The notes under the pieces are model-generated. The model had not been told where the DNA came from, did not search any database, and saw nothing but the letters and a program-made list of their open reading frames with translations. Both the position numbers and the translations under genes were made by a program. Shown here in pieces: positions 14,355 to 60,819 of a DNA stretch of 64,000 nucleotides. Origin of the DNA: an uncultured Candidatus Rokubacteria bacterium (GTDB taxonomy: Bacteria; Methylomirabilota; Methylomirabilia; Rokubacteriales; DASRDR01). The stretch spans positions 160,001 to 224,000 of the forward strand of contig CAVPSB010000002.1 in the NCBI GenBank assembly GCA_963708025.1. The letters run 5' to 3'. The stretch's first letter is position 1, and each line of letters opens with the position of its first letter.

Positions 14355-15498
14355 CTACCAGAACTCGCGCGAGGCCAGCCGGGCGCCCTCGGCCATGCTC
14401 GCCAGCTTGGCCCAGACCACCCCGGGATCCACGGCGGCCTGACCGACCCAGGTGCCGTAGCCGCAGTCGGTCCCCGCGATGACGTTCTCCCGGCCCACCA
14501 GCTTCGCGTAGCGCCCGATCCGCTGCGCCACCAGCTCGGGGTGCTCGATGAAGTTGCTCTTCGACTCCAGGACCCCGGGGATGAGGACCTTGCCCTCGGG
14601 CAGCCGGACGCGCTCGAACAGCCGCCACTCGTGGGCGTGGCGGGGGTTGGCGGCCTCGAACGAGATGCCGCTCGGCCGGGCGGCGAGCACGATGTCGATG
14701 ATGTCCGCCAGCGGCACGTCGTGGTGGTGCGGACCCTCGTAGTTGCCCCAGCACACGTGCATGCGGACCCGGTCGGGCGGGACGTTGGCCAGGGCGTGGT
14801 CGAGGGCCTCCACGTGCAGTCGCGCCATCTTTCGGAACTGCTCGAGGCTCAGGTCGGCGAACTGGATGTGCCGGCCCATGGCGAGGTCCGGGCAGTCGAC
14901 CTGCAGCACGAAGCCGGCCTCGACCACCGCCTCGTACTCGTGACGCATCGCGTCCGCGATGCCGGCCAGGTAGGCTTCGTGGCTCGGGTAGTGGTCGTTG
15001 CGGAAGAAGAGGGAGATGACGCCCGGCGAGGCCGCCGTCAGGAAGGCCTCCTCGGCGCGGGTGGCGGCCAGCGCCGCCCTCAGGTTCTCCGCGTCGGCGA
15101 CCGCGGCCTGCGGATCGCGCACGCTGATCGGCCCGTCGCAGGCCGGGGTCCGGCGCCGCGACCGTCCGGGATCGCCGAAGACCCGCTTGGCCAGCTCGGG
15201 GAAGTCCACCAGGTCGCGGTACCGGAGCGACTGGCTCGCGCCGCCGAACCCGGCCAGGCGATCCTTGACGTAGGTGGCATAGCTCGGCTTGCTGAGCTCG
15301 CCGTCGCTGACGATGTCCACGCCGGCCTCGGCCTGCTTGCGGACGACCTCGGCGACGGCCGAGCGGATGCGCGCGGCCAGGGCCCCGCGGTCGACGGGCA
15401 CGCCCTCCTCCCGGGCGAACATCATGCGGACCAGGTCGTCGGGCCGCGGCAGGCTGCCCGGCGTGCGTGGTGAGGAACCGATCCGTGCTGCGCTTGAT
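14355..15498 (-). CDS. Cobalamin-independent methionine synthase II-family (MetE-like) Zn enzyme, frameshift near 15458
   Basis: TTHAG/SLPRP N-terminus split across frames; SDGE, MHVCWGN, GTDCG Zn ligands. ATC sits where the paralog at 54766 has ATG. Confidence 0.85.
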
Positions 15499-15603
15499 TG
15501 GGACCTCCCGCCTACCCGATCGTCCGACGGCCTTCGGCCTTTGGCCCCCCTCCCCCACCCATGGACGGCCTTCGGCCTTTGGCCGGGGGGGAGGGGGGGG
15601 TCG
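15499..15603 (-). repeat. Family A element (C-tract/G-tract hairpin ending in GGGAGGTCCC RBS), copy 1
   Basis: Reverse complement matches the copies at 48160, 54681, 55911 and 58941. Confidence 0.8.
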
Positions 15604-15628
15604 GAAGGGGCTTCACTTGACTCGGCTC

Positions 15629-16787
15629 TCAGCCGGCGAGGGTGAAGCGGGGGTCGGCGGCGGGGATCGGCACCTCGGGGAGCTTCAACTCACGGCGGAC
15701 GAGGTTGGCGCCGAGGTTGATCGCCACGCACTTGTAGAAGGCGATCCGCCGGGCGAGCCCCTCCCGGCCGAACCCGCAGTCGGTGGAGAGGATGAGCCGC
15801 TCGGGCGGCACGTACTCGAGCGCCTTCCGGATCAGGCCGGCCACCACCTCCGGCGGCTCCACGGCCGCGCTGGTGTGGCTGACCACGCCGATCGCGATCT
15901 TCTTGTCGGTGCGGTACCGGCCGAGGAGCGGGAGGTCGCGCCCGCCCGTCGAGGCGCACTCGAGCGTGAGGACGTCGGCGGTGGTCTGCAGGAGATACGG
16001 GAGCGCGCGCTCGTAGGACGGGCGCTCCCAGTAGAGCGGCTGCTGGTTCGGGTTGCCCCAGCAGGTGTGGAGCCAGACCTCGGTCTCCACGCCCCGGATC
16101 TCGCGGTTGACGGCGTCGGTGAAGAACTGGAGATCGGCGTCGGTGGTGCTCGCGTCGACGGTGGCGCTGTGGTGGCGGGGCTCCTCGACCTGGATGACGC
16201 GGCATCCGGCCGCCGCCACCGCCCGGAGCTCGGCGTTGAAGACGTCGGCGACGTCGAGGATCAGCTCGCGCTCGGAGGCGTAGTGCCGGTTCACCAGCAT
16301 CTTGGCCAGCGTCTGGGCGCTGATGGCCCCGAACTTCACCGGCCGGTCGGTGAGCCGCTGGGCCATGCGCCAGAGCGCCGCGTACTGGAGGGGGCCGGCC
16401 CCGATCTTCTCGCCCACCAGGGCCGGCTGGTAGGCCTCCATCACCTCGTAGAGGATGTGGCCCGGCTGGAGCGTCCACCCCGAGGCCCGGGTCCGGTCCA
16501 CGTGACCGGTGATCCCGGTGAGCCGCTCGATCGGGTAGTAGAACCAGGACTTCCCCCCGACGGTGAGGTCGAAGCGGGAGTCTCCGTCGGTCACGATGTC
16601 AAGGCCGGCCCGGACCTGCTCGCCGATGCAGGCACTGCACGGCGTCGAGGTACTGCTCGCGGAAGACGCTGTCGCCCAGCGCCTCCTTGAACGGCCGGCC
16701 GCGCAGCCCCTCGGTGAACCAGGACGGTCGCGGGTAGGAGCCGGTGATCGTCGTCGGCAGCACGAGGTCGCGGGTCGCGTTCAGCAC
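15629..16787 (-). CDS. Second MetE-like (Meth_synt_2) Zn enzyme, frameshift near 16630
   Basis: TTITGSYPRP N-terminus; TDGD, WLHTCWGN, STDCGFG. Confidence 0.85.
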
Positions 16788-46032: not shown

Positions 46033-48156
46033 GTGAGCTCCTTCGCGGACGTGTCCGGTCTTCTCGAGCCGAGATCGATCGCGGTGATCGGCGCCTCGGA
46101 TCAGCCGGGGAACCTCGGCGGGACCGCGGTCCGGTACCTGCAAAAGTTCGCCTACCCCGGTCCCGTCTGGCCCGTGAACCCGAGGCGGCAGACGGTGGCC
46201 GGGCTGCCGTGCTTCCCGAAGGTCGCGAGTCTCCCGGGCCCCGCCGACCTGGCCATCCTGGCCATCTCGGCCGACGCGATCGTGGACATGGTGCGCGAGT
46301 GCGCCGAGGCCGGGATCGCGCACGGCATCGTGTGGGCGGGCGGCTTCGCCGAGGTCGGCGGGGAAGGGGTCCGGCGCCAGCAGGCGCTCGTCGAGATGTG
46401 CCGCCGGACCGGCTTCAAGCTGTGCGGGCCCAACTGCATCGGCATCGTCAACACGCGGCTGCCGATGACCGCCAGCTTCGCCTCGTCGCTCCTCGAGGCG
46501 GAGCGGATGCTCCCGGGCAACATCTCCATGATCAGCCAGAGCGGCGGGATGGCCACGGTCGCCCAGGCCCTCGCCCAGCGGGCCGGCTTCGGGTTCCGGT
46601 ACGTCGTCAGCACCGGCAACGAGGCGGTGCTGACCACGGCCGACTTCATCCACGGGCTCGTCAAGGATCCGGAGACCCGGGTCATCGCCACGTACCTGGA
46701 GGGCGTCGACGACGGCGCGAAGTTCGTGACCGCGCTGGAGGAGGCTCGCCGGGCCCGCAAGCCGGTCATCGTCCTCAAGGGCGGCGTCACCGCGGCCAGC
46801 GCCCGGGCCGCGGTCGCCCACACCGGGGCGCTGGCGGGGGAAGACCGGGTCTGGAGCGCCCTGCTCCGGGAGCACGCCGTGATCCGGGTGCACTCCCAGG
46901 AGGAGCTCCTGGACGTGGCGATGCTCCTGAGCGGCACCGACCCCGACAAGCTGCCGGCGGGGAACGGCGTGGCGGCGGTGACGTTCGGGGGCGGCAGCGG
47001 CGTACTCTCGGCCGACCAGTGCGTGCAGCACGGCCTGACCACGCCGCCGCTGGCGGCCGCCACCGCGGAGCGCCTGAAGACCCTGGTCACGCCGCTCGCC
47101 TCCATCGCCAATCCCATCGACCTGACGCCCGACACCTACAACCAGCCGGACTGGCTCGCGCGGCTTCCGCAGGCGCTGGACGTCATCGCGGCCGACCCCA
47201 GCATCCACACGGTGTTCTTCCAGTTCGGGGCGATGGCTCACCGGGCGACGGAGATGATGGACACCGTCGGCGCCCTCCGGAGCCGGACCGCCCGGACCGT
47301 CTGCGTGGCGTGGCCGATGGCGTCGCGGGCGGTGCTGGAGCGGCTGCCGGCCGAGGGGGTCTATCCGTTCCCGGAGATCGCCCGCGGCCTCCGGGCCATC
47401 GGCCAGGTGGCCCGCTACCGGGCCGCGCTCGCGGAGCCGCCCCGGCTCGACGACGGCGAGGTGCCGGCGTTCGACTGGTCCGCCTTTCTGTCGGCACCAC
47501 CGGCGGCCGGCACGGTGGTCTCCGAGCCGCAGTGCCACCGCATCCTGGCCACCGCCGGTCTGCCGACGGCGGCCGGCCGGCTCGCCGGCTCTCCGGACGA
47601 GGCGATCCGGGCGGCGGCCGCGGTGGGCTATCCGGTGGCCCTCAAGGGCATCTCGCCGGCGGTGACGCATCGGGCGGCGGCGGGTCTCGTGGCCCTCGGG
47701 GTCCGCTCCGACGGGGAGACGCGTGAGGCCTTCGAGCGGCTCACCGCCCGGGCGACCGCGATGGGGTTGCGCCTGGAGGGGATCTACGTCCAGCACATGG
47801 TGGCCGGCGGGCTGGAGCTGCTGGTGTCGGCCTTCCGCGATCCGCTGTTCGGCGTGATGGTCTCCTGCGGCGCCGGCGGCAACCTGACCGAGGTGATCGA
47901 CGACGTGGTTTTGGAGCGCGCGCCCGTCGGTGAGGCCGCCGCGCTCCGCATGGTGGAGCGACTCCGGGTCGTCCGGCACGCGCGCCGGCTGAACCCGGAG
48001 CTGGACGGGGGCGCGGCGGCGCGATTCGTCGCGCGGTTCTCGCGCCTGGCGGCCACGGCGCCGTGGCGGCGGTTCGTCCTGGAGGTGAACCCCATCCGGG
48101 CGGGCCGGGACGCCGCGGTGGCGGTCGACGGGCTCCTGGTCGTGGAGGAGCCGTGA
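46033..48156 (+). CDS. Acetate-CoA ligase (ADP-forming) family acyl-CoA synthetase
   Basis: PRSIAVIGAS, GPNCIG, SQSGG, STGNEA, AHTG phospho-His, NPIDL, ATP-grasp EVNP; start uncertain. Confidence 0.88.
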   Translation: MSSFADVSGLLEPRSIAVIGASDQPGNLGGTAVRYLQKFAYPGPVWPVNPRRQTVAGLPCFPKVASLPGPADLAILAISADAIVDMVRECAEAGIAHGIVWAGGFAEVGGEGVRRQQALVEMCRRTGFKLCGPNCIGIVNTRLPMTASFASSLLEAERMLPGNISMISQSGGMATVAQALAQRAGFGFRYVVSTGNEAVLTTADFIHGLVKDPETRVIATYLEGVDDGAKFVTALEEARRARKPVIVLKGGVTAASARAAVAHTGALAGEDRVWSALLREHAVIRVHSQEELLDVAMLLSGTDPDKLPAGNGVAAVTFGGGSGVLSADQCVQHGLTTPPLAAATAERLKTLVTPLASIANPIDLTPDTYNQPDWLARLPQALDVIAADPSIHTVFFQFGAMAHRATEMMDTVGALRSRTARTVCVAWPMASRAVLERLPAEGVYPFPEIARGLRAIGQVARYRAALAEPPRLDDGEVPAFDWSAFLSAPPAAGTVVSEPQCHRILATAGLPTAAGRLAGSPDEAIRAAAAVGYPVALKGISPAVTHRAAAGLVALGVRSDGETREAFERLTARATAMGLRLEGIYVQHMVAGGLELLVSAFRDPLFGVMVSCGAGGNLTEVIDDVVLERAPVGEAAALRMVERLRVVRHARRLNPELDGGAAARFVARFSRLAATAPWRRFVLEVNPIRAGRDAAVAVDGLLVVEEP

Positions 48157-48159
48157 GGT

Positions 48160-48265
48160 CGTGTGAAGGAATGGATCCTCCGACTCCCCCCTCCCCCCGG
48201 CCAAAGGCCGAAGGCCGTCCATGGGTGGGGGAGGGGGGTTGGGGGGGTGGGCGGGCGGTCCCGAA
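48160..48265 (+). repeat. Family A element, copy 2, abutting the tctB ATG
   Basis: C-tract, GGCCAAAGGCCGAAGGCC, G-tracts, GGGCGGTCCCGAA-ATG. Confidence 0.8.
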
Positions 48266-48724
48266 ATGAAGCGGCCTTACCAGGTCACCGCGGTGCTCTG
48301 CCTCCTGTTCGCGGCGTTCGTCCTGCGGCAGTCGCTCGCCTTGAAGCTCTACACCTCGATGGGGCCCGGCCCCGGCTTCTTCCCGTTCTGGCTCGCCATC
48401 CTCTTCGCCGGCCTCGCGCTGATCATGCTCGGGCAGGCCACCCTCGCGCCCTCCACCCCGAGGCCGGCGGATTTCTTCGCCACCCGGACCGGCTACCTCC
48501 GCATCGCGACCATCGTCGGCTCGCTGGTCGGTACCGTCCTCCTGCTCGACCCGCTGGGATTCCGCCTCACCACGCTGGCGTTCTACCTCGTCCTGCTGAA
48601 CGTCCTCAGCCGGCAGAGCTGGCTGGTGACCCTCGTGATCGCTGTCGCGGGGAGCTTCGGCGTCTACTACGTCTTCGCCGAAGTCCTGAGGATCCCGCTG
48701 CCCGTGGGCCTGCTCGGAGTGTAG
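48266..48724 (+). CDS. tctB: Tripartite tricarboxylate transporter small permease
   Basis: GPGPGFFPFW, LGF, VFAEVLRIPLP.G. Confidence 0.88.
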   Translation: MKRPYQVTAVLCLLFAAFVLRQSLALKLYTSMGPGPGFFPFWLAILFAGLALIMLGQATLAPSTPRPADFFATRTGYLRIATIVGSLVGTVLLLDPLGFRLTTLAFYLVLLNVLSRQSWLVTLVIAVAGSFGVYYVFAEVLRIPLPVGLLGV

Positions 48725-53059: not shown

Positions 53060-53913
53060 CGCTTCCGGCGGGTCTCGGTCGGCGGCGGGTCGGGCGGCTG
53101 CTCCGAGCGTATCCGCTGGGCGTGTTCGGGGCGGTGGTCCTCGTCACGATGACGCTAGCCGCGGTCTTCGCGACCTGGCTCGCGCCCTACGATCCGCTGG
53201 AGACCAACTATGCCATGGTGGTCCGGCCCCCGAGCGCGAGCCACTGGCTGGGGACCGATCACTTCGGGCGGGACGTGCTGAGCCGCCTGATCTTCGGCGC
53301 CCGGACGGCGTTGCTGGTCGGCCTCGTCTCGTCGTTCGTCAGCGCGACGCTCGGCTCCCTGGTCGGGGCGACGACGGCGTACTTCGGCGGGAGGGTGGAC
53401 CTGATCGTCCAGCGGTTCACCGACATCCTCCTCTCCTTCCCGCTGGTGATCCTGGCCATCGCCGTGGTCGCCGCGCTCGGGGCCGGGACCGCCCAGGTCA
53501 TCGCGGCCATCGTCGTCCCCATGGTGCCCCGAGCCACGCGGGTGGTGCGGGCGAGCGCGCTGGCGATCCGGCAGATGCCGTACATCGAGGCCGCCCACGG
53601 CACGGGCGTGGGCGACCTGCGGGTCATCTTTCGCCATCTCCTGCCGAACGTGGTCGCCCCGTACCTCGTCCTGCTGACCGCGTTCCTGGCCGAGGTGATC
53701 GTGCTGGAGGCCAGCCTGAGCTTCCTGGGGCTGGGCGTCGTCGAGCCGACCCCGGCGTGGGGGCTGATGCTGCGGGATTTCGCGGGGTCCTACGCCGAGA
53801 GCGCGCCCTGGCTGCCGCTCGCCCCCGGCGTGGCGATCAGCCTGGGGGTCTTCGGCTTCAACCTCCTGGGGGACGCCGTGCGCGACGCCCTCGATCCTCG
53901 CCTGCGGGGCTGA
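53029..53913 (+). CDS. Dpp/Opp-type ABC permease (DppC-like)
   Basis: HWLGTDHFGRDVLSR, RHLLPN, LSFLGLG, GDAVRDALDP. Confidence 0.9.
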   Translation: MAGSAYPIPVALPAGLGRRRVGRLLRAYPLGVFGAVVLVTMTLAAVFATWLAPYDPLETNYAMVVRPPSASHWLGTDHFGRDVLSRLIFGARTALLVGLVSSFVSATLGSLVGATTAYFGGRVDLIVQRFTDILLSFPLVILAIAVVAALGAGTAQVIAAIVVPMVPRATRVVRASALAIRQMPYIEAAHGTGVGDLRVIFRHLLPNVVAPYLVLLTAFLAEVIVLEASLSFLGLGVVEPTPAWGLMLRDFAGSYAESAPWLPLAPGVAISLGVFGFNLLGDAVRDALDPRLRG

Positions 53914-54668
53914 TGGGACGCCTCGACGGCAAGGTGGTGCTGATCAGCGGCGGCGCCCGGGGCCAGGGCGCGGTCGAGGTCCGGCTCTTCGCCCGCGAGG
54001 GGGCCCGGGTGGTCTTCGGCGACCTCCTGGACACCGAGGGACGGCAGCTCGAGGCCGAGATTCGCGGCGCCGGTGGCGAGGCGACGTACCTCCACCTCGA
54101 CGTCACCCGCGAGGACGACTGGCGGGCCGCGGTGGGCGCGGCGGTGAATCGATACGGGCGCCTGGACGTCTTGGTCAATAACGCCGGCATTCTCCTGCGC
54201 AAGCGCACCGAGGACACCACCGCCGAGGAGTGGGACCGCGTTCTCGCCGTCAACGTCACCGGCGTGTTCTTCGGGACCAAGCACGCGCTCCCCGCCCTGC
54301 GACAGGCCGGCGGTGGCTCGATCGTCAACATCTCGTCCATCGCCGGCCTGGTGGGAAGCGTGTACGGCTCCTCGGCCTACACCGCGACGAAGGGCGCGGT
54401 GCGGCTCTTCACCAAGTCGATCGCGATCCAGCACGCCGGCGAGAACATCCGGTGCAACTCGATCCATCCGGGCCCGATCGACACCGAGATGATGCGCGAC
54501 GTGTTCGGGGATCCGGCGACGCGGGAGGAGCGGCGCAACCGGATCCCGCTGCGACGGATCGGGCGGGCCGAGGACGTCGCGTACGGGGCCCTCTATCTCG
54601 CCTCCGACGAGGCGTCGTTCGTCACGGGGGCCGAGCTGGTCATCGACGGCGGCATCACCGCGCAGTGA
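53913..54668 (+). CDS. Classical short-chain dehydrogenase/reductase
   Basis: SGGARGQG, NNAG, S, YTATK, TG...IDGG. Confidence 0.92.
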   Translation: MGRLDGKVVLISGGARGQGAVEVRLFAREGARVVFGDLLDTEGRQLEAEIRGAGGEATYLHLDVTREDDWRAAVGAAVNRYGRLDVLVNNAGILLRKRTEDTTAEEWDRVLAVNVTGVFFGTKHALPALRQAGGGSIVNISSIAGLVGSVYGSSAYTATKGAVRLFTKSIAIQHAGENIRCNSIHPGPIDTEMMRDVFGDPATREERRNRIPLRRIGRAEDVAYGALYLASDEASFVTGAELVIDGGITAQ

Positions 54669-54680
54669 AGGAACGGAGAG

Positions 54681-54765
54681 CGTGTGAAGGAACGGGGCCG
54701 TCCGGCCCCCCCCTCCCCCCAGTGGGTGGGGGAGGGGGGCTGGGGGGGTAGGCGGGAGGTCGCGA
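54681..54765 (+). repeat. Family A element, copy 3, abutting the MetE-like ATG
   Basis: CCCCCCCCTCCCCCCAGTGGGTGGGGGAGGGGGG...GGGAGGTCGCGA-ATG. Confidence 0.8.
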
Positions 54766-55905
54766 ATGAAGCGGAGCACGGATCGGATCCTGACGACGCA
54801 CACCGGCAGCCTGCCTCGGCCAGCCGAGCTGGTGGACATGCTGCGACGGGCCGAGGCGGGCGAGCCTGGGGACCGGGCGGCGTTCGACGCCGCGGTCCGG
54901 GCGGCCGTGGACGACACCGTCCGCAAGCAGGTCGGGGCCGGCGTGGACGTCGTCAACGACGGTGAGCAGGGAAAGCCGGGGTACGCCACGTACGTCAAGG
55001 ACCGCGTGACCGGCTTCGGGGGGCAGAGCCGGGTGACGACCGTGTGGGCCGAGGGGCGCGACTTCCCCGAGTACGTGGCGCGGCGGACCGGGAACACCCG
55101 GTCGAGCTTCCCGCGGCCCTACTGCGATGGCCCCATCGCCTGGCGGGACTTCGCCGCCGTCCAGCGGGACATCGACACCCTGAAGGCCGCCGTGAAGGGC
55201 GTCGAGGCCGCCGAGGTGTTCATGACCGCCGCCTCGCCGGGCGTGGTCTCGATCTTCCTGGCCAACGAGTACTACCCGAGCCGGGAGAAGTACCTGGAGG
55301 CCATCGCCCGCGTGATGAAGGACGAGTACGAGGCGATCCACGCCGCCGGGTTCGTGCTCCAGCTCGACTGCCCCGACCTGGCGATGAGCCGGCACAACCG
55401 GTTTCCGGACCTGAGCCTCCCGGAGTTCCGCAAGCTCGTCGGGCTCCACGTCGAGGTGCTCAACGAGGCCACCAGGGCGATCCCGCCGGACCGCATGCGG
55501 CTCCACCTCTGCTGGGGGAACTACGAGGGACCGCACCACCTGGACGTGCCGCTCCGGGACATCATCGACCTCGTCCTCCAGGCCCGGCCGGCCGGGATCT
55601 CGTTCGAGGGCGCCAACCCGCGGCACGAGCACGAGTGGAAGATCTGGAAAGAGGTCGAGCTGCCGCCCGGCAAGGTGCTGATTCCCGGCGTCATCGACTC
55701 GACGACCAACTTCATCGAGCACCCGGAGCTGGTGGCGGAGCGGATCGCCCGCTACGCGAGCGCGGTCGGCCGGGAGAACGTCATCGCGGGGACCGACTGC
55801 GGGTTCGGCACGTTCGCCGACAACGACAGCGTGGACGCCCGGATCGCCTGGGCGAAGCTGCGGGCCCTGGCCGAAGGCGCCCGCCTCGCTGGGAGAATGC
55901 CCTGA
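54766..55905 (+). CDS. Third MetE-like (Meth_synt_2) Zn enzyme
   Basis: TTHTGSLPRP, NDGE, LHLCWGN, GTDCGFG; clear paralog of 14355..15498. Confidence 0.9.
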   Translation: MKRSTDRILTTHTGSLPRPAELVDMLRRAEAGEPGDRAAFDAAVRAAVDDTVRKQVGAGVDVVNDGEQGKPGYATYVKDRVTGFGGQSRVTTVWAEGRDFPEYVARRTGNTRSSFPRPYCDGPIAWRDFAAVQRDIDTLKAAVKGVEAAEVFMTAASPGVVSIFLANEYYPSREKYLEAIARVMKDEYEAIHAAGFVLQLDCPDLAMSRHNRFPDLSLPEFRKLVGLHVEVLNEATRAIPPDRMRLHLCWGNYEGPHHLDVPLRDIIDLVLQARPAGISFEGANPRHEHEWKIWKEVELPPGKVLIPGVIDSTTNFIEHPELVAERIARYASAVGRENVIAGTDCGFGTFADNDSVDARIAWAKLRALAEGARLAGRMP

Positions 55906-55910
55906 GCAAT

Positions 55911-56020
55911 CGGATCCTCCGGCCCCCCCCTCCCCCCAGTGGCCACCGGAGGGGCGGGACGCCGCGAGGGCCGAAGGCCTGAGCCGTCCCGGCGATCCGA
56001 TCAAATGAGGGGGGCTGGGG
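55911..56020 (+). repeat. Family A element, copy 4 (divergent lead-in to the tandem array)
   Basis: GGATCCTCCGGCCCCCCCCTCCCCCCAGTGG...GAGGGGGGCTGGGG. Confidence 0.7.
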
Positions 56021-56638
56021 GGGAGGAGGGAGGTCCCGAATGACGGGCAAGGTGGCGGGGCGCGGGGGTCCGTTCCCTCCGGCTCCCCCTCCCCCCAGTG
56101 GGTGGGGGAGGGGGTTGGGGGGGAGGAGGGAGGTCCCGAATGACGGGCAAGGTGGCGGGGCGCGGGGGTCCGTTCCCTCCGGCTCCCCCTCCCCCCAGTG
56201 GGTGGGGGAGGGGGTTGGGGGGGAGGAGGGAGGTCCCGAATGACGGGCAAGGTGGCGGGGCGCGGGGGTCCGTTCCCTCCGGCTCCCCCTCCCCCCAGTG
56301 GGTGGGGGAGGGGGTTGGGGGGGAGGAGGGAGGTCCCGAATGACGGGCAAGGTGGCGGGGCGCGGGGGTCCGTTCCCTCCGGCTCCCCCTCCCCCCAGTG
56401 GGTGGGGGAGGGGGTTGGGGGGAGGAGGGAGGTCCCGAATGACGGGCAAGGTGGCGGGGCGCGGGGGTCCGTTCCCTCCGGCTCCCCCTCCCCCCAGTGG
56501 GTGGGGGAGGGGGTTGGGGGGGAGGAGGGAGGTCCCGAATGACGGGCAAGGTGGCGGGGCGCGGGGGTCCGTTCCCTCCGGCTCCCCCTCCCCCCAGTGG
56601 GTGGGGGAGGGGGTTGGGGGGTAGGAGGGAGGTCCCAA
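56021..56638 (+). repeat. Tandem array of six ~100-bp units plus a partial seventh carrying the RBS of the next gene
   Basis: Units start at 56021, 56121, 56221, 56321, 56421 (99 bp, one G fewer) and 56520; otherwise identical. Confidence 0.95.
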
Positions 56639-57763
56639 ATGACCACGGCTAAGGCGGCGGTGCTCGATCGCCCGCTGGGGACGTTCCGCGTCCAGGAATT
56701 CCGCGTGCCGGAGCCCGAGGCGGGGACGGTGCTGCTGCGCCAGGAGCTGGCGGGCTGCTGCGCCACCGATGCCCACACCTACCTGGGACAGTGGAAGGCC
56801 GAGTTCCCCGTCCTGCTCGGCCACGAGAACGTCGGGATCGTCGAGGCGATCGGCTCGGGCGGCGCGACGGATCTCCTCGGCCGGGAGCTTCGGGTCGGGG
56901 ACCGCATCGTGGCCCGGACCGGCTCCTGCGGCGCCTGCTACGAGTGCCGCGTGGCCCGGCTGCCCCGCCGCTGCCGGAACCTGGGGGTCCGCTACGGCTT
57001 CTCGAACCCCGAGCGGGCCCCGTTCGGCGGGGGCTTCGCCGAGTATCTCTACCTCGGCTCGCCCCGGACGACCTTCATGGTGAAGATCGACATGCGCCCC
57101 TCGATCGCGGCGCTGCACGAGCCGCTGGGCGTCGCGGCGCACGCCATCCGGCGGGCCCCGCCCCGCCTGGGCCACACGGTGGTGGTGCAGGGGAGCGGGA
57201 CGATCGGGCTGCTGACGCTCGGCCTGGCGCGGCGGGCCGGGGCGACGCGGGCCATCGTCGTCGGCGGCCCGGCGGAGCGCCTCGCCCTGGCCCGGGCGCT
57301 CGGCGCCCACGTCACGATCGACATCGGGGAGATCCGGGCCCCCGAGGATCGGATTCGCGCGGTCGTGGGCGAGACGCCGGGTGGGCTCGGCGCCGACGTC
57401 GTCTACGGCTGCGCCGGCAAGGCCGCCGCCTGGACCGAAGGCCTCCACTACCTGCGCGACGGCGAGGGACGCTTCGTCGAGGTGGGGCTCGCCGGCGACG
57501 ACGGGCCGGTGTCGTTCAACCCGGCCACGCAGCTCGTGGCCAGGAACCTGACGCTGATCGGCGCGCTCGGGGCGCTCGACGAGGATTCGGTCACCGCGCT
57601 GCGCGTGATGGAGGCCGGCGAGCTGCCGCTGGAGGGCATGGTGACGCACCAGCTCCCGCTGGAGCGGGTCGGCGACGCCATGGCGGCGCTGAACGGCGAC
57701 TACCGGCTCGACGGCCGCGCGGCCGTGAAGATCGCGATCGCCCCCAACGGTCCCGTCGCGTGA
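56639..57763 (+). CDS. Zn-dependent medium-chain alcohol dehydrogenase
   Basis: C.TD, LGHE, CGACYEC...C structural Zn, GSGTIG. Confidence 0.92.
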   Translation: MTTAKAAVLDRPLGTFRVQEFRVPEPEAGTVLLRQELAGCCATDAHTYLGQWKAEFPVLLGHENVGIVEAIGSGGATDLLGRELRVGDRIVARTGSCGACYECRVARLPRRCRNLGVRYGFSNPERAPFGGGFAEYLYLGSPRTTFMVKIDMRPSIAALHEPLGVAAHAIRRAPPRLGHTVVVQGSGTIGLLTLGLARRAGATRAIVVGGPAERLALARALGAHVTIDIGEIRAPEDRIRAVVGETPGGLGADVVYGCAGKAAAWTEGLHYLRDGEGRFVEVGLAGDDGPVSFNPATQLVARNLTLIGALGALDEDSVTALRVMEAGELPLEGMVTHQLPLERVGDAMAALNGDYRLDGRAAVKIAIAPNGPVA

Positions 57764-57876
57764 TCGCGGGGCACGGCGTCGCGTCGGTGTTCGACCGCAA
57801 CGGAGGCCCGGCCGCTGTCCGGGCCGTGCGAGGTGACGCTCGAAGCGGGGCGCATCCGCCCCGGGGAGGCAGAGCC

Positions 57877-58925
57877 ATGGAACAGTCGCGCGAGCGGACG
57901 GCGTCGCCGATGCGTCGGCGGACATTCCTCCAGACGATCGGGCTGGTCGGTGGGGCGGGGGTCCTGGCCGTGCTCGGGGCCGCCGGGGCCGCCGCCCAGC
58001 CGGCCCGCCCCGAGGTGACGATCAGGTTCGCGAGCCTCTTCAACCCGGATCACTCCGCCTCGCGGGCCGCCGATCGCTTCGCCGAGCTGGTCGCCCGGAA
58101 GACGGCGGGAAGGTGAAGGTCGAGGTCTTCCACAGCGCGTCCCTCGGCAGCGAGCGGGAGGTCGCCGAGGGTGTCCGGTCGGGGAGCATCGACATGGGCT
58201 ATTCCGGGCTGCCCGGCTACGGGAGCTTCGTGCCGGAGCTCCAGATCCTGGAGATGCCCTACCTGTACGAGGACCTGGACGAGGTCCGGTCCGTCGCCGA
58301 GAAGCTGTCGCCCGACCTGGAGCAGCTCCTGGCCGGGGGCGGGCTGCGGCTCGTCGGCTACGTGTTCGACGGCCCGCGGATGACGCTGGCGACCCGGCCG
58401 CTGCGCTCGATCGACGACTTCCGGGGGTTGAAGTTCCGGGTGCCGCAATCCCCGCTCTACGTGACGATGGCGAAAGCGTTCGGGGCCATCCCGACCCCGG
58501 TCGCGTTCCCGGAGGTCTACACGGCGCTCCAGACGAAGATCGCCGAGGCGCTGGAGGGCTCTCCGACCACCCTCTACACCGGCAAGTACTACGAGGTGGC
58601 GAAGAACCTGGTCCGGACGGACCACATCTTCTACGTCGCCTACGTGGCGATGAACCCCGAGCTCTTCAAGAAGCTCCCGGCCGATCACCAGCGGGCGATT
58701 CTCGAGGCGGGCCGCGAGAGCAGCGCGTACAACCTGGAGCTGGCCAAGAAAGGGATCCAGGAGGACCTCGACCGGCTCAAGGCCTCGGGGGTCCAGACCT
58801 TCACGCCGGACAAGGCGCCCTTCCGGATGGCGGTGAAGGACGCCAACGAGAAGTTCGCCGAGAGCCGGGGCGCGCGGGCGCTGCAGCTCTACCAGCGCGT
58901 GAAGGAGTTCACGAAGCGCCCGTGA
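57877..58925 (+). CDS. dctP: TRAP transporter substrate-binding protein with Tat signal, frameshift near 58112
   Basis: RRRTFL twin-arginine; SLGSERE, GLKFRVP, EVYTALQT. Confidence 0.85.
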
Positions 58926-58940
58926 CCCAACATCGCGCTC

Positions 58941-59049
58941 TTCCGGCCCCCCCCTCCCCCCGGCCAAAGGCCGCAGGCCGTCCAACGATGGGGGAGGGGG
59001 GCCAAAGGCCGAAGGCCATCGAAGAATCGGGTAGGAGGGAGGTCCCAAA
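58941..59049 (+). repeat. Family A element, copy 5, abutting dctQ
   Basis: Near-copy of the reverse complement of 15499-15603; ends GGGAGGTCCCAAA-CTG. Confidence 0.8.
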
Positions 59050-59541
59050 CTGCGCATCTACGACGAGGTGGTCCGGACCGCCGCCTTCGTGACCTTCAGC
59101 GTCATGCTCGGCGCCGCGCTGGTCGGCACCGTGACCCGCTACCTCACCTTTCTCCCCGTCGTCTCGTGGGGCGAGGAGGTCACGCGGTACGCGGGGATCT
59201 GGTCGGTGTTCCTCGTCGCGGGCCTCGGTCTCCGACACGGCGCCCACCTGGGCGTGGACCTCGTGACCAGCCGTCTCCCGCCCCGCGTCCGGCGGGGTGT
59301 CTATGTGCTCGTCTACGCCCTCGTCCTCGCCTTCGCCGGGCTCCTGCTGGTGGCGGGAGCCCGGCTGGCCCGCGAGAACATGGGACAGGTTTCACCGACG
59401 CTCGAGTGGCCGATGGGGGCCGTCTATCTCTGCATCCCGATCGGCGCCGGCCTGATGATCGTCGAGACCCTCCGGCTCCTGGGCCGGGCGCTCCGCGGCT
59501 TGCCGCCGCCGCGGCCACCGGTGGACGAGGTCGTCGAGTGA
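59050..59541 (+). CDS. dctQ: TRAP transporter small permease
   Basis: WGEEVTRY, HLGVD, SPTLEWP; start at CTG 59050 or GTG 59068. Confidence 0.85.
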   Translation: MRIYDEVVRTAAFVTFSVMLGAALVGTVTRYLTFLPVVSWGEEVTRYAGIWSVFLVAGLGLRHGAHLGVDLVTSRLPPRVRRGVYVLVYALVLAFAGLLLVAGARLARENMGQVSPTLEWPMGAVYLCIPIGAGLMIVETLRLLGRALRGLPPPRPPVDEVVE

Positions 59542-60819
59542 TCCTGCTCCTCTTCGGGCTCTTCCTCGTGCTCCTGGCGCTCGAGATGCCGATCGCCTTC
59601 GCGATCGGGGTGTCGTCGAGCGCCGTCGTCTTCCTGAGCGAGCGGCTGCCGCCCACCTTCATCGTCTCGAAGATCTTCGCCGGCCTGGACTCCTTCCCGC
59701 TGATGGCCATCCCGTTCTACGTCCTGGCCGGCAACCTGATGAGCGAGGGCGGGCTCACGCTGAAGATCGTCAACTTCGCGAACGCCCTGGTCGGCCACGT
59801 GCGGGGCGGGCTGGCCCACGTGTCCATCGTGGCCGCGGCCATCTTCTCGGGGGTCTCGGGGTCGGCCGCCGCCGACACGGCGGCGATCGGGTCCATCATG
59901 ATCCCTTCCATGAAGAAGCGCGGCTTCCACGCCGACTTCGCCGTCGCGCTGGTGGCCTCGGCCTGCACCATGGGCCCGATCATCCCCCCCAGCATCCTGT
60001 TCATCGTCTACGGCTCGCTGGCCCAGGTGTCGGTCGGGCAGCTGTTCCTGGCCGGCTTCCTTCCCGGCGTGCTCATGGCGCTGATGCTGATGGCCTTCGT
60101 CTACGTCATCGCGCGGCGGCGGGGGTACGCGCCGGCCCACGCCGCAGTTCTCGGGCGAGCGGGCGCTCCAGACCCTCGGCGGCGCCGGCTGGGCGCTGCT
60201 CGTCCCGGTGATCATCATCGGCGGCATCGTGGGTGGCTTCTTCACGCCCACCGAAGCCGGGGTGATCGCGGTCGTCTACGCGCTCTTCGTGGCGATGGTG
60301 ATCCAGCGCACGGTCCGGCCGCGGGACCTGCGGCGCATCTTCCTCGACTCGGCGATCGTGACGAGCATCGTCATGCTCATCCTTGGTCCGGCGACCGTGT
60401 TCGGCTCGCTGCTGATCCGGGCCCACTTCCCCGAGCAGGTCCTGGCCGTGCTCACCCGGCTCACCAGCGACGCGACGCTGTCGATCTTCCTCATGATGGG
60501 CTTCATCCTCGCCCTCGGCTTCTTCGTCAACGTCATGGTCATGATCATCATGTTCGCCCAGCCGTTCGCCGAGGTGGCGGCGCGCCTGGGCTACGACCCG
60601 ATTCACTTCGGCGTCGTGTTCACGCTGGCGGCCACGATCGGCGGGATCACCCCACCGGTCGGCTCGCTCCTCTTCGTCGCGTGCAGCATCGGGCGGATCG
60701 GGCTGGCCGAGGCGTCGCGGGCCATCTGGCCCTTCGTCCTGGCCCTGGTGCTGGTGACGGCCGTGCTGATCCTCTTCCCCTCGGTGAGCACGATCGTGCC
60801 CCGGCTGGTGTTCCAGTGA
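59538..60819 (+). CDS. dctM: TRAP transporter large permease, frameshift near 60145
   Basis: SFPLMAIPF, FSGVSGSAAAD, IIPPSI, TPTEA, DPIHFG, ITPPVG. Confidence 0.88.

Follow-up and report, generated by a model that had tools for sequence, protein, structure and literature searches.

Immediately upstream of a zinc-type alcohol dehydrogenase gene in an uncultured Candidatus Rokubacteria bacterium, six nearly identical units of about 100 nt follow one another head to tail. We analyzed this array in a 64,000-nt stretch of DNA (the window; positions 160001-224000 of contig C2) and in the genome from which it comes, an assembly of 8.17 Mb in 49 contigs that is 99.67% complete and carries a contamination score of 8.18%. 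The array is probably a minisatellite of a lineage-specific, dispersed, intercistronic repeat that resembles the interspersed repetitive units of mycobacteria (MIRUs). The repeat element recurs across the genome as a family with a defined anatomy, a strand bias and a preferred placement between genes, and it forms parallel arrays at other loci. An earlier note on the same DNA had read the array as a purpose-built tuner of the genes downstream, i.e. the alcohol dehydrogenase, a tripartite ATP-independent periplasmic (TRAP) transporter and a ligase. All the features that it named turned out to belong to a repeat with 470 matches in the genome, situated between unrelated genes.

Anatomy of the array and of its repeat family

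Tandem Repeats Finder (TRF) describes the array as 6.3 copies with a period of 100 at 56010-56643 (99% matches, no indels, score 1240), and a repeat search places successive unit starts 100, 100, 100, 99, 100 and 100 nt apart. The six near-identical 100-bp units, one of them 99 bp long, are thus present in the assembly as the earlier note had described them. ATGA occurs at 56040, 56140, 56240, 56340, 56439, 56539 and 56639, each time preceded by GGAGG and a 6-nt spacer, which reads TCCCGA in the six units and TCCCAA before the dehydrogenase gene. The proposed Shine-Dalgarno-TCCCGA-ATG motif is therefore found in every unit, and the last, partial copy does supply the Shine-Dalgarno sequence and the ATG (56639) with which the 374-aa dehydrogenase begins. 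Each unit consists of a decoy ATGA with a 35-nt spacer, followed by ~65-75 nt of the dispersed element. The latter is composed, in this order, of CCCTCC, C5TC6, the loop AGTGGGT, G5AG5, TT, G7, AGGAGGGAGG and TCCCGA, and each unit ends in GGAGGAGGGAGG-TCCCGA. Only the spacer of ~35 nt (ATGACGGGCAAGGTGGCGGGGCGCGGGGGTCCGTT) is private to this locus. The units share 99-100% identity, with units 2-4 and 6 being identical, and the sole difference of the 99-nt unit is a G6 in place of G7, possibly an error in the homopolymer. A CRISPR array was ruled out, as the spacers are 96-100% identical to one another rather than unique.

Searching the genome with one array unit gave 366 BLAST high-scoring segment pairs. 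Full-length unit matches were confined to the array; elsewhere only unit positions 1-32 and 65-100 matched, joined into one 65-nt block. From 192 full-length BLAST copies we built a profile of 187, keeping one of the six array copies, and employed it with nhmmer at a cut-off of E<=0.001. This yielded 470 matches genome-wide, among which 318 are full length; the consensus measures ~95 nt. The consensus runs CTGAG, AGCGTGTGAAGGAATCGGG, TCCTCCGGCTCCCCCCTCCCCCC, GGTGGGT, GGGGGAGGGGGGTTGGGGGGGTGGGCGGGAGG, TCCCGAA and CTGAG, which corresponds to a plan of CTGAG, a 20-nt leader, an imperfect palindrome of C-tract and G-tract, GGAGG, TCCCGAA and again CTGAG. At the level of the family, the features are thus a stop TGA, a C/G-tract hairpin, a G tract of four runs with a G-quadruplex (G4) motif, GGAGG and, often, ATGA. 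The apparent cassette before the dehydrogenase is the ordinary anatomy of a repeat family, and the case for a dedicated tuner thereby loses its main argument. Dispersed copies differ by roughly 10%, and the per-position conservation of CTGAG is 58-80% at the left boundary and 44-61% at the right one. The whole element is itself an imperfect palindrome whose arms, i.e. terminal inverted repeats of 22-23 nt, are 77-78% complementary. No Rfam family was matched at its gathering score, the best being generic hairpin matches at 25 bits compared to gathering scores of >=55.

Grouping matches within 150 nt resulted in 386 single copies, 33 pairs, four triples and one six-fold cluster, the dehydrogenase array being the largest; at all 38 multi-copy loci the copies are arranged head to tail. 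Sixteen of the pairs represent a long variant that carries an insert of ~65 nt in its loop, in the same layout as at 55902-56039, where it directly precedes the first array unit. About 20 other clusters consist of copies 1-9 nt apart that share one CTGAG. A genome-wide TRF run detected further arrays of the same or a related element, namely at C25:162231 (138 nt x 2.4), C44:53037 (110 x 2.6), C10:79990 (102 x 2.2), C14:537589 (147 x 3.2, then 92 x 2.2) and C32:131823 (111 x 4.4, related family). Those on C44, C10 and C14 hold three to five copies, and every such parallel array ends at a gene start. That the copy number of the dehydrogenase array varies is plausible, because the same element makes head-to-tail clusters of two to six copies at 38 loci as well as these further arrays.

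The clearest precedent lies at C25:162200-162600. Here, the 138-nt unit comprises the element and the first 26 nt of the downstream gene for a small membrane protein at 100% identity, and the array yields two decoy open reading frames (ORFs) of 15 aa (MTEMGKLLSCRCEHV) before the true start. By analogy, the spacer of the dehydrogenase array may descend from the 5' end of the dehydrogenase gene.

Two further repeats were observed alongside the family. The loop insert at 55943-56008 is a second small sequence of ~65 nt with a stem of its own (CGGGACG...CGTCCCG), which also lies in the element loop at 16 other loci, e.g. C14:537560-538000, and may be a nested small repeat. At C32:131800-132340 on the minus strand, the related array mentioned above is made of a distinct C/G-tract repeat that ends in GAATGA at a gene start and is matched weakly by the main profile.

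To explain the array, we propose the following course of events. The element occupies the narrow gaps between co-directional genes in sense orientation, where the upstream stop is often its left TGA and the downstream ribosome-binding site often its GGAGG. One copy of this kind would originally have stood before the dehydrogenase. The element and ~35 nt beginning with an ATGA start would then have been duplicated in tandem and amplified to six units, likely by unequal recombination or replication slippage between highly similar, hairpin-prone copies, while the last copy would have continued to provide the Shine-Dalgarno sequence of the dehydrogenase. Because the duplicated segment carried them, the decoy starts, the ATGA and the G4 motifs would be by-products.

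Alternatively, the 100-nt unit might be a complete variant element that inserted six times, on each occasion into the TGA/CTGAG recreated by the previous copy. The clusters of closely spaced copies sharing one CTGAG and the CTGAG on both sides of the consensus would agree with such serial insertion. The 35-nt spacer, however, occurs nowhere else in the genome, so that no such variant family exists; the units are far more alike (99-100%) than the dispersed copies with their divergence of ~10%, and the C25 array clearly duplicates sequence of its host gene. We therefore regard serial insertion as quite unlikely.

It is also unlikely that the array is an artefact of assembly, in which the element and perhaps one or two units would have been expanded to six by the assembler's traversal of a repeat loop. 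Short reads could not count units 2-4 and 6, which are identical, and homopolymer length is the only internal difference; moreover, the contamination score of the genome and the nearby dctM gene, split in two frames perhaps by indel errors, would suit this explanation. What argues against it is the presence of ordered variants along the array, with unit 1 joined to the long-variant copy, the G6 unit in fifth place and TAGG and CCCAAA in the last unit, and of similar arrays of two to five units at other loci of the same assembly.

Placement of the element between genes

Genes were called with our own codon-usage model, which gave 6927 calls covering 78% of it. Judged against these calls, 289 of the 318 full-length copies are intergenic. 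Between co-directional genes, 211 copies lie in sense and 25 in antisense; 40 fall into convergent and 13 into divergent gaps. The background of gaps of at least 60 nt is 2918 co-directional, 483 convergent and 728 divergent. The element takes up nearly all of its gap, with a median distance of 9 nt to the stop codon upstream and of 19 nt to the start codon that follows. At least 86 copies of about 250 use the TGA in their left CTGAG as the stop codon of the upstream gene, and 64 of about 224 place GGAGG 3-13 nt ahead of a called start.

The dehydrogenase locus follows this pattern. In the window, copies occupy four successive gaps of the row of genes to which the dehydrogenase belongs (48163-48275, 54684-54772, the array and 58937-59058), and one more lies on the minus strand (Table 1). 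The stop TGA (55903-55905) of the MetE-like gene upstream sits within the CTGAG that marks the left boundary of the element. This gene is preceded by an ABC transporter and a short-chain dehydrogenase/reductase (SDR) gene, and the dehydrogenase is followed by dctP, dctQ, dctM and an ADP-forming acyl-CoA synthetase gene (Pfam), all on the plus strand. The dctM gene is split: the frame of 59166-60251 covers positions 1-206 of Pfam DctM, and that of 60208-60819 covers positions 222-412. The split near 60130-60210 is a frameshift or an assembly indel, and if it is an indel error, the G6 of the single array unit may be one too.

Table 1 Coordinates in the window of the array, of the other element copies and of the adjoining genes.
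Feature	Position	Strand	Evidence and details
Six head-to-tail units	56040..56638; starts 56040, 56140, 56240, 56340 (99 nt), 56439, 56539	+	TRF, repeat search, ORF listing, six nhmmer matches (model positions 13-90)
Long-variant element copy	55902..56039	+	CTGAG; 5' arm with CCTCC 55916-55920 and C tract 55923-55937; ~65-nt loop insert 55943-56008; G-rich 3' arm 56009-56039, which includes GGAGG
Shine-Dalgarno GGAGG (56628-56632) with its TCCCAA spacer, dehydrogenase gene	56628..56638	+	Supplied by the last element copy
G4 motif GGGTGGGGGAGGGGGTTGGGGGGG	Example 56100..56123; again at 56200, 56300, 56400, 56499, 56599; related motif 56009-56030 (long variant)	+	Regex scan
Zinc-type alcohol dehydrogenase, 374 aa, start ATGA	56639..57763	+	Pfam ADH_N, ADH_zinc_N; alignments to relatives begin at residues 1-16
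MetE-like gene, 379 aa	54766..55905	+	Weak Pfam Meth_synt_2 match
Single element copy, gap between SDR gene and MetE-like gene	54684..54772	+	nhmmer 70.8 bits, model positions 2-90; GGGAGG 6 nt before ATG 54766
Element copy with ~25-nt loop insert	48163..48275	+	nhmmer 65.4 bits; acyl-CoA synthetase gene (stop 48154-48156) upstream, tctB (ATG 48266) downstream
Weaker element copy, gap between dctP (ends 58925) and dctQ (starts 59068)	58937..59058	+	nhmmer 29.9 bits; Pfam
Element copy between minus-strand genes 14355-15425 and 15629-16594	15494..15609	-	nhmmer 32.3 bits

The excess of sense over antisense copies could also be read differently. The element might be a self-propagating intercistronic module of stop codon, stable stem-loop and Shine-Dalgarno sequence, whose sense bias of 211:25 stems from a role in the mRNA and whose clusters are heritable, recombination-driven rheostats. 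If this were true, the extent to which transcription and translation arrive at the downstream cistrons would depend on the number of decoy starts and stem-loops, and the array would represent, for a free-living soil bacterium, a locus of the contingency type. We consider this improbable.

RNA structure and translation

The earlier note had proposed that the C tract pairs with the G tract, and the minimum free energy (MFE) of -50.1 kcal/mol predicted for the 80-nt element agrees with this; the antisense strand folds at -43.8 kcal/mol. Dinucleotide shuffles average -45.1 kcal/mol, giving z = -1.33, and 25 of 200 fold at least as well, which indicates that the stability of the element comes from its composition. 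The register of the fold is slippery, the MFE structure representing 4% of the ensemble. RNAalifold did not recover the stem from the model-based alignment, in which indels in run length misalign. A comparison of run lengths, feasible for 113 of 236 copies, revealed weak correlations between paired runs (rho 0.28, p=0.003 and rho 0.20, p=0.04) and none for unpaired combinations; these correlations could stem from subfamily structure.

The four G-runs per unit are present as well, as a four-run G tract was found in all six full elements and the long variant contributes a seventh G4 motif. A regex scan thus counted seven motifs in 55901-56700. Genome-wide, 392 of 2259 canonical motifs (17%) fall inside element matches, so that the G4 counts of this genome largely reflect the repeat. 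Folding with the G4 option of ViennaRNA, a test suggested for the unit, does lower the energy from -50.1 to -63.8 kcal/mol; however, the predicted quartets have only two layers and lie in the loop region, with the stem retained.

The decoy starts are well formed because the genome uses GGAGG most often at 6 nt from the start. The motif precedes 1038 of 5395 called genes compared to 5.7% in a control window, with a peak of the spacing at 6 nt, and the tail of the 16S has the canonical sequence (CACCTCCTT). The predicted probability of being unpaired is 0.43-0.60 for the decoy Shine-Dalgarno sequences and about 0.9 for the AUG. Masking of the Shine-Dalgarno sequence by the hairpin was rejected, given a mean probability of being unpaired of 0.39 for GGAGG supplied by the element (n=94) and of 0.31 for other GGAGG (n=80).

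In the ribosome relay put forward for the array, an ORF opened in unit n would end on the ATGA of unit n+2. This holds for two of the six decoy ATGs (56040 and 56140) and not for the other four, whose ORFs stop at 56540-42, 56622-24 (twice) and 56650-52, the later ones being shifted by the 99-nt unit; none of the six stops on the ATGA of the dehydrogenase. Across the family, 99 copies with both TGAs show TGA-to-TGA lengths modulo 3 of 37:24:38, i.e. no preference for multiples of three, and NTGA starts beside elements (21 of 64) are not enriched over the 38% of start codons that are followed by A genome-wide. Judging from these frame classes and the NTGA counts, a selected relay finds no support, and the geometry within the array is irregular. 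We also considered that the element splits NTGA stop/start overlaps, which fits five of five loci in records of other metagenome-assembled genomes (MAGs) and is unsupported by the NTGA counts of the source genome.

These results bear on the proposal that the array is an adaptive copy-number tuner, in which the output of the dehydrogenase, transporter and ligase genes would be governed by decoy ribosome-binding sites, an ATGA relay and a switch made of hairpin and G4. Part of it stands: the six decoy Shine-Dalgarno-ATG pairs are well formed at the preferred spacing of the genome and predicted to be accessible, and the C/G pairing and the G4 motifs are present. The ends of decoy ORFs 4-6 fall 15 nt in front of the real ATG or 11 nt behind it, inside the range of reinitiation, the G4 option lowers the folding energy, and short coupled ORFs in MIRUs are treated as ribosome deliverers in excerpts of a review (PMC12548453). 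Against this, the features are generic to the family of 470 matches, the relay rule applies to two of six ORFs with none ending on the real ATGA and with neither a frame preference nor NTGA enrichment, the predicted G4s are two-layered within a structure that keeps the stem, and no promoter-like site lies in 53600-58200. A scan of that region returned zero sigma-70-like promoter sites and one terminator-like site, which is outside the array. A tuner function is possible, albeit unsupported, and we judge the adaptive tuner to be an unlikely explanation. If the array is a minisatellite as we favor, it would presumably be nearly neutral, and its seven stable stem-loops and six translatable decoy ORFs would likely damp or insulate the downstream cistrons to some degree.

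That the repeats encode protein, either in the G/P-rich ORFs of 61-100 aa or in a long minus-strand ORF (54655-56778), is extremely unlikely. The frames are indeed open; however, the minus-strand ORF has a codon-usage log-odds of -145.8, compared to +117 to +144 for the real neighbouring genes, and what the plus-strand ORFs translate is repeat sequence, in frames that shift.

Distribution and relation to known repeats

A 24-nt hairpin core, allowing up to two mismatches, was found 242 times in the source genome and twice in genome G003, and the 249 other genomes searched in the phylum gave no match; the same core read backwards as a control pattern gave none either. With at most one mismatch, a variant core is present in one to four copies in five (G001, G002, G003, G006 and G020) of 20 other genomes from the same family and was not found in any of 230 genomes from other families. 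G038, an unpublished genome, is counted in these tallies among the genomes that lack a match. The counts suggest an old family that is low-copy in its taxonomic family and massively expanded in the source genome. As MAGs often lack repeats, the element is to be considered not found elsewhere rather than absent. Scanning named genomes for the exact variant core resulted in six stretches, two from Methylomirabilota or Rokubacteria MAGs, three labelled 'uncultured bacterium' and one from an Acidobacteriota, the last matching the element profile weakly at 9.9 bits. At five good loci in other MAG records, a start codon (ATGA, ATGA, GTGA, TTGA and TTGA) again follows the end of the element, at a distance of 5-7 nt.

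In G003, which belongs to another genus, a tandem dimer of the element with copies 69 nt apart is flanked by a stop codon and a TTG start (C98:2150-2300; locus L014, same DNA as L026). The N-terminus of the gene that follows (MIRIGVNPIGWTNDD) resembles, by eye, that of a sugar-phosphate isomerase or epimerase.

For the dehydrogenase, no relative above 38% identity was found among 40 related genomes, the best being in G038. Orthologues of the MetE-like gene in genus g5 (81-86% identity) overlap by ATGA with a different downstream gene, without the element; the start of this gene resembles, by eye, a GntR-type regulator. The SDR gene (53913-54668) is missing at the orthologous loci of eight relatives from genus g5, where the ABC permease gene is directly followed by the MetE-like gene. 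Scans of metagenome contigs gave zero matches for the array spacer and zero for a conserved 5' stretch of the dehydrogenase.

Among known systems, the closest analogue are the MIRUs and their variable-number tandem repeat (VNTR) loci. According to excerpts of PMC3184786, MIRUs are 40-100 bp long, number about 40-50 per genome and lie inside operons with polycistronic transcription; they show short direct repeats at filled sites, GC-rich inverted repeats and ORF ends that overlap the neighbouring genes. Excerpts of PMC12548453, citing Supply et al. 1997, add that they insert at start codons with an internal ORF coupled at -4. As far as these excerpts go, our family shares with MIRUs the intergenic units dispersed in tens to hundreds of copies, the orientation with the genes of operons, the GC-rich inverted repeats, the tandem arrays and, in part of its copies, the ends at the flanking stop and start with the ATGA-type junction. 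It differs from them in belonging to another phylum, in being roughly tenfold more common (470 matches compared to the 40-50 given there), and in having a C/G-tract core with a G4 motif, bringing its own GGAGG and containing no conserved in-frame internal ORF.

Other families resemble the element less closely. The Neisseria REP2 and Borrelia IR repeats, as described in excerpts of PMC3184786, also carry a promoter, whereas our element has no predicted sigma-70-like site and lies in operons directly after a stop codon. Repetitive extragenic palindromic (REP) sequences and bacterial interspersed mosaic elements (BIMEs), which occur with REP-associated tyrosine transposases (RAYTs) in Enterobacteria and Pseudomonas, are likewise high-copy, GC-rich extragenic palindromes that are under-represented in divergent promoter gaps and form clusters at some loci (excerpts of PMC2817692, PMC3733652 and PMC3116915). 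In the same excerpts, REPs measure 20-40 bp and alternate in BIMEs, while our element is 75-95 nt long, is arranged head to tail in all 38 clusters and was found without a Y1/RAYT. An identity with REP/BIME thus fails on RAYT, length and orientation. Miniature transposable elements with inverted repeats (MITEs), such as the Correia and ERIC elements, form a further class. In excerpts of PMC3184786, they share with our family the small non-coding element, the inverted-repeat ends, the short direct flanking repeats, the subfamilies and the variants with internal inserts. Our element differs in that a limited search found no parent insertion sequence for it, its CTGAG may be its own, and its sense to antisense ratio is 211:25. 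In the literature on repeats in Rokubacteria and Methylomirabilota (MITE, REP, palindromic or interspersed), no paper on this family was among the matches listed, and nothing relevant was found on effects of VNTRs on translation.

Several observations weigh against a minisatellite of a near-neutral repeat. No Y1/RAYT transposase was detected, PF01797 having no match in this 99.67% complete genome and matches in six of 14 control genomes. Matches to half-elements pair only at 48-85 nt, which are the 16 long variants, and none pair at up to 6 kb, in a search that did not extend to protein-based detection of a parent. The CTGAG at the flanks may represent target duplications or belong to the element. 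In 32 of 243 copies, the 5-mers flanking it on the left and on the right are the same, compared to 19.5 +/- 3.2 in shuffles, none of 2000 of which reaches 32; the CTCAG variant goes with one subfamily, and the flanking motif may therefore be internal to the element. Short public contigs from four of 22 runs do not bridge a unit junction and leave 56162-56455 without cover, so that the copy number rests on the assembly; those of the RNA run touch only 55749-55899. The echo of the dehydrogenase start (MTTAKA) in the decoys (MTGKVA), which the earlier note had pointed out, is weak: the DNA of the spacer matches the 5' end of the gene at 17 of 22 positions, which ranks 107th among 5948 gene starts, with SDR-like GKVA starts scoring higher. 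Finally, the strong sense bias suggests selection at the level of RNA, so that the family may not be neutral, and the predicted accessibility of the decoy Shine-Dalgarno sequences and AUGs makes an effect on translation possible.

Taken together, we favor an intercistronic, MIRU-like repeat as the origin of the array. The family constitutes an undescribed small repeat that is very abundant, in a soil lineage of which little is known, with an unusually strict sense orientation and with a stop codon and a ribosome-binding site of its own. It also speaks for a wide occurrence of MIRU-like elements at cistron junctions. Arrays of this kind are possible strain markers, a source of spurious ORFs and the spots at which an assembly is least reliable.

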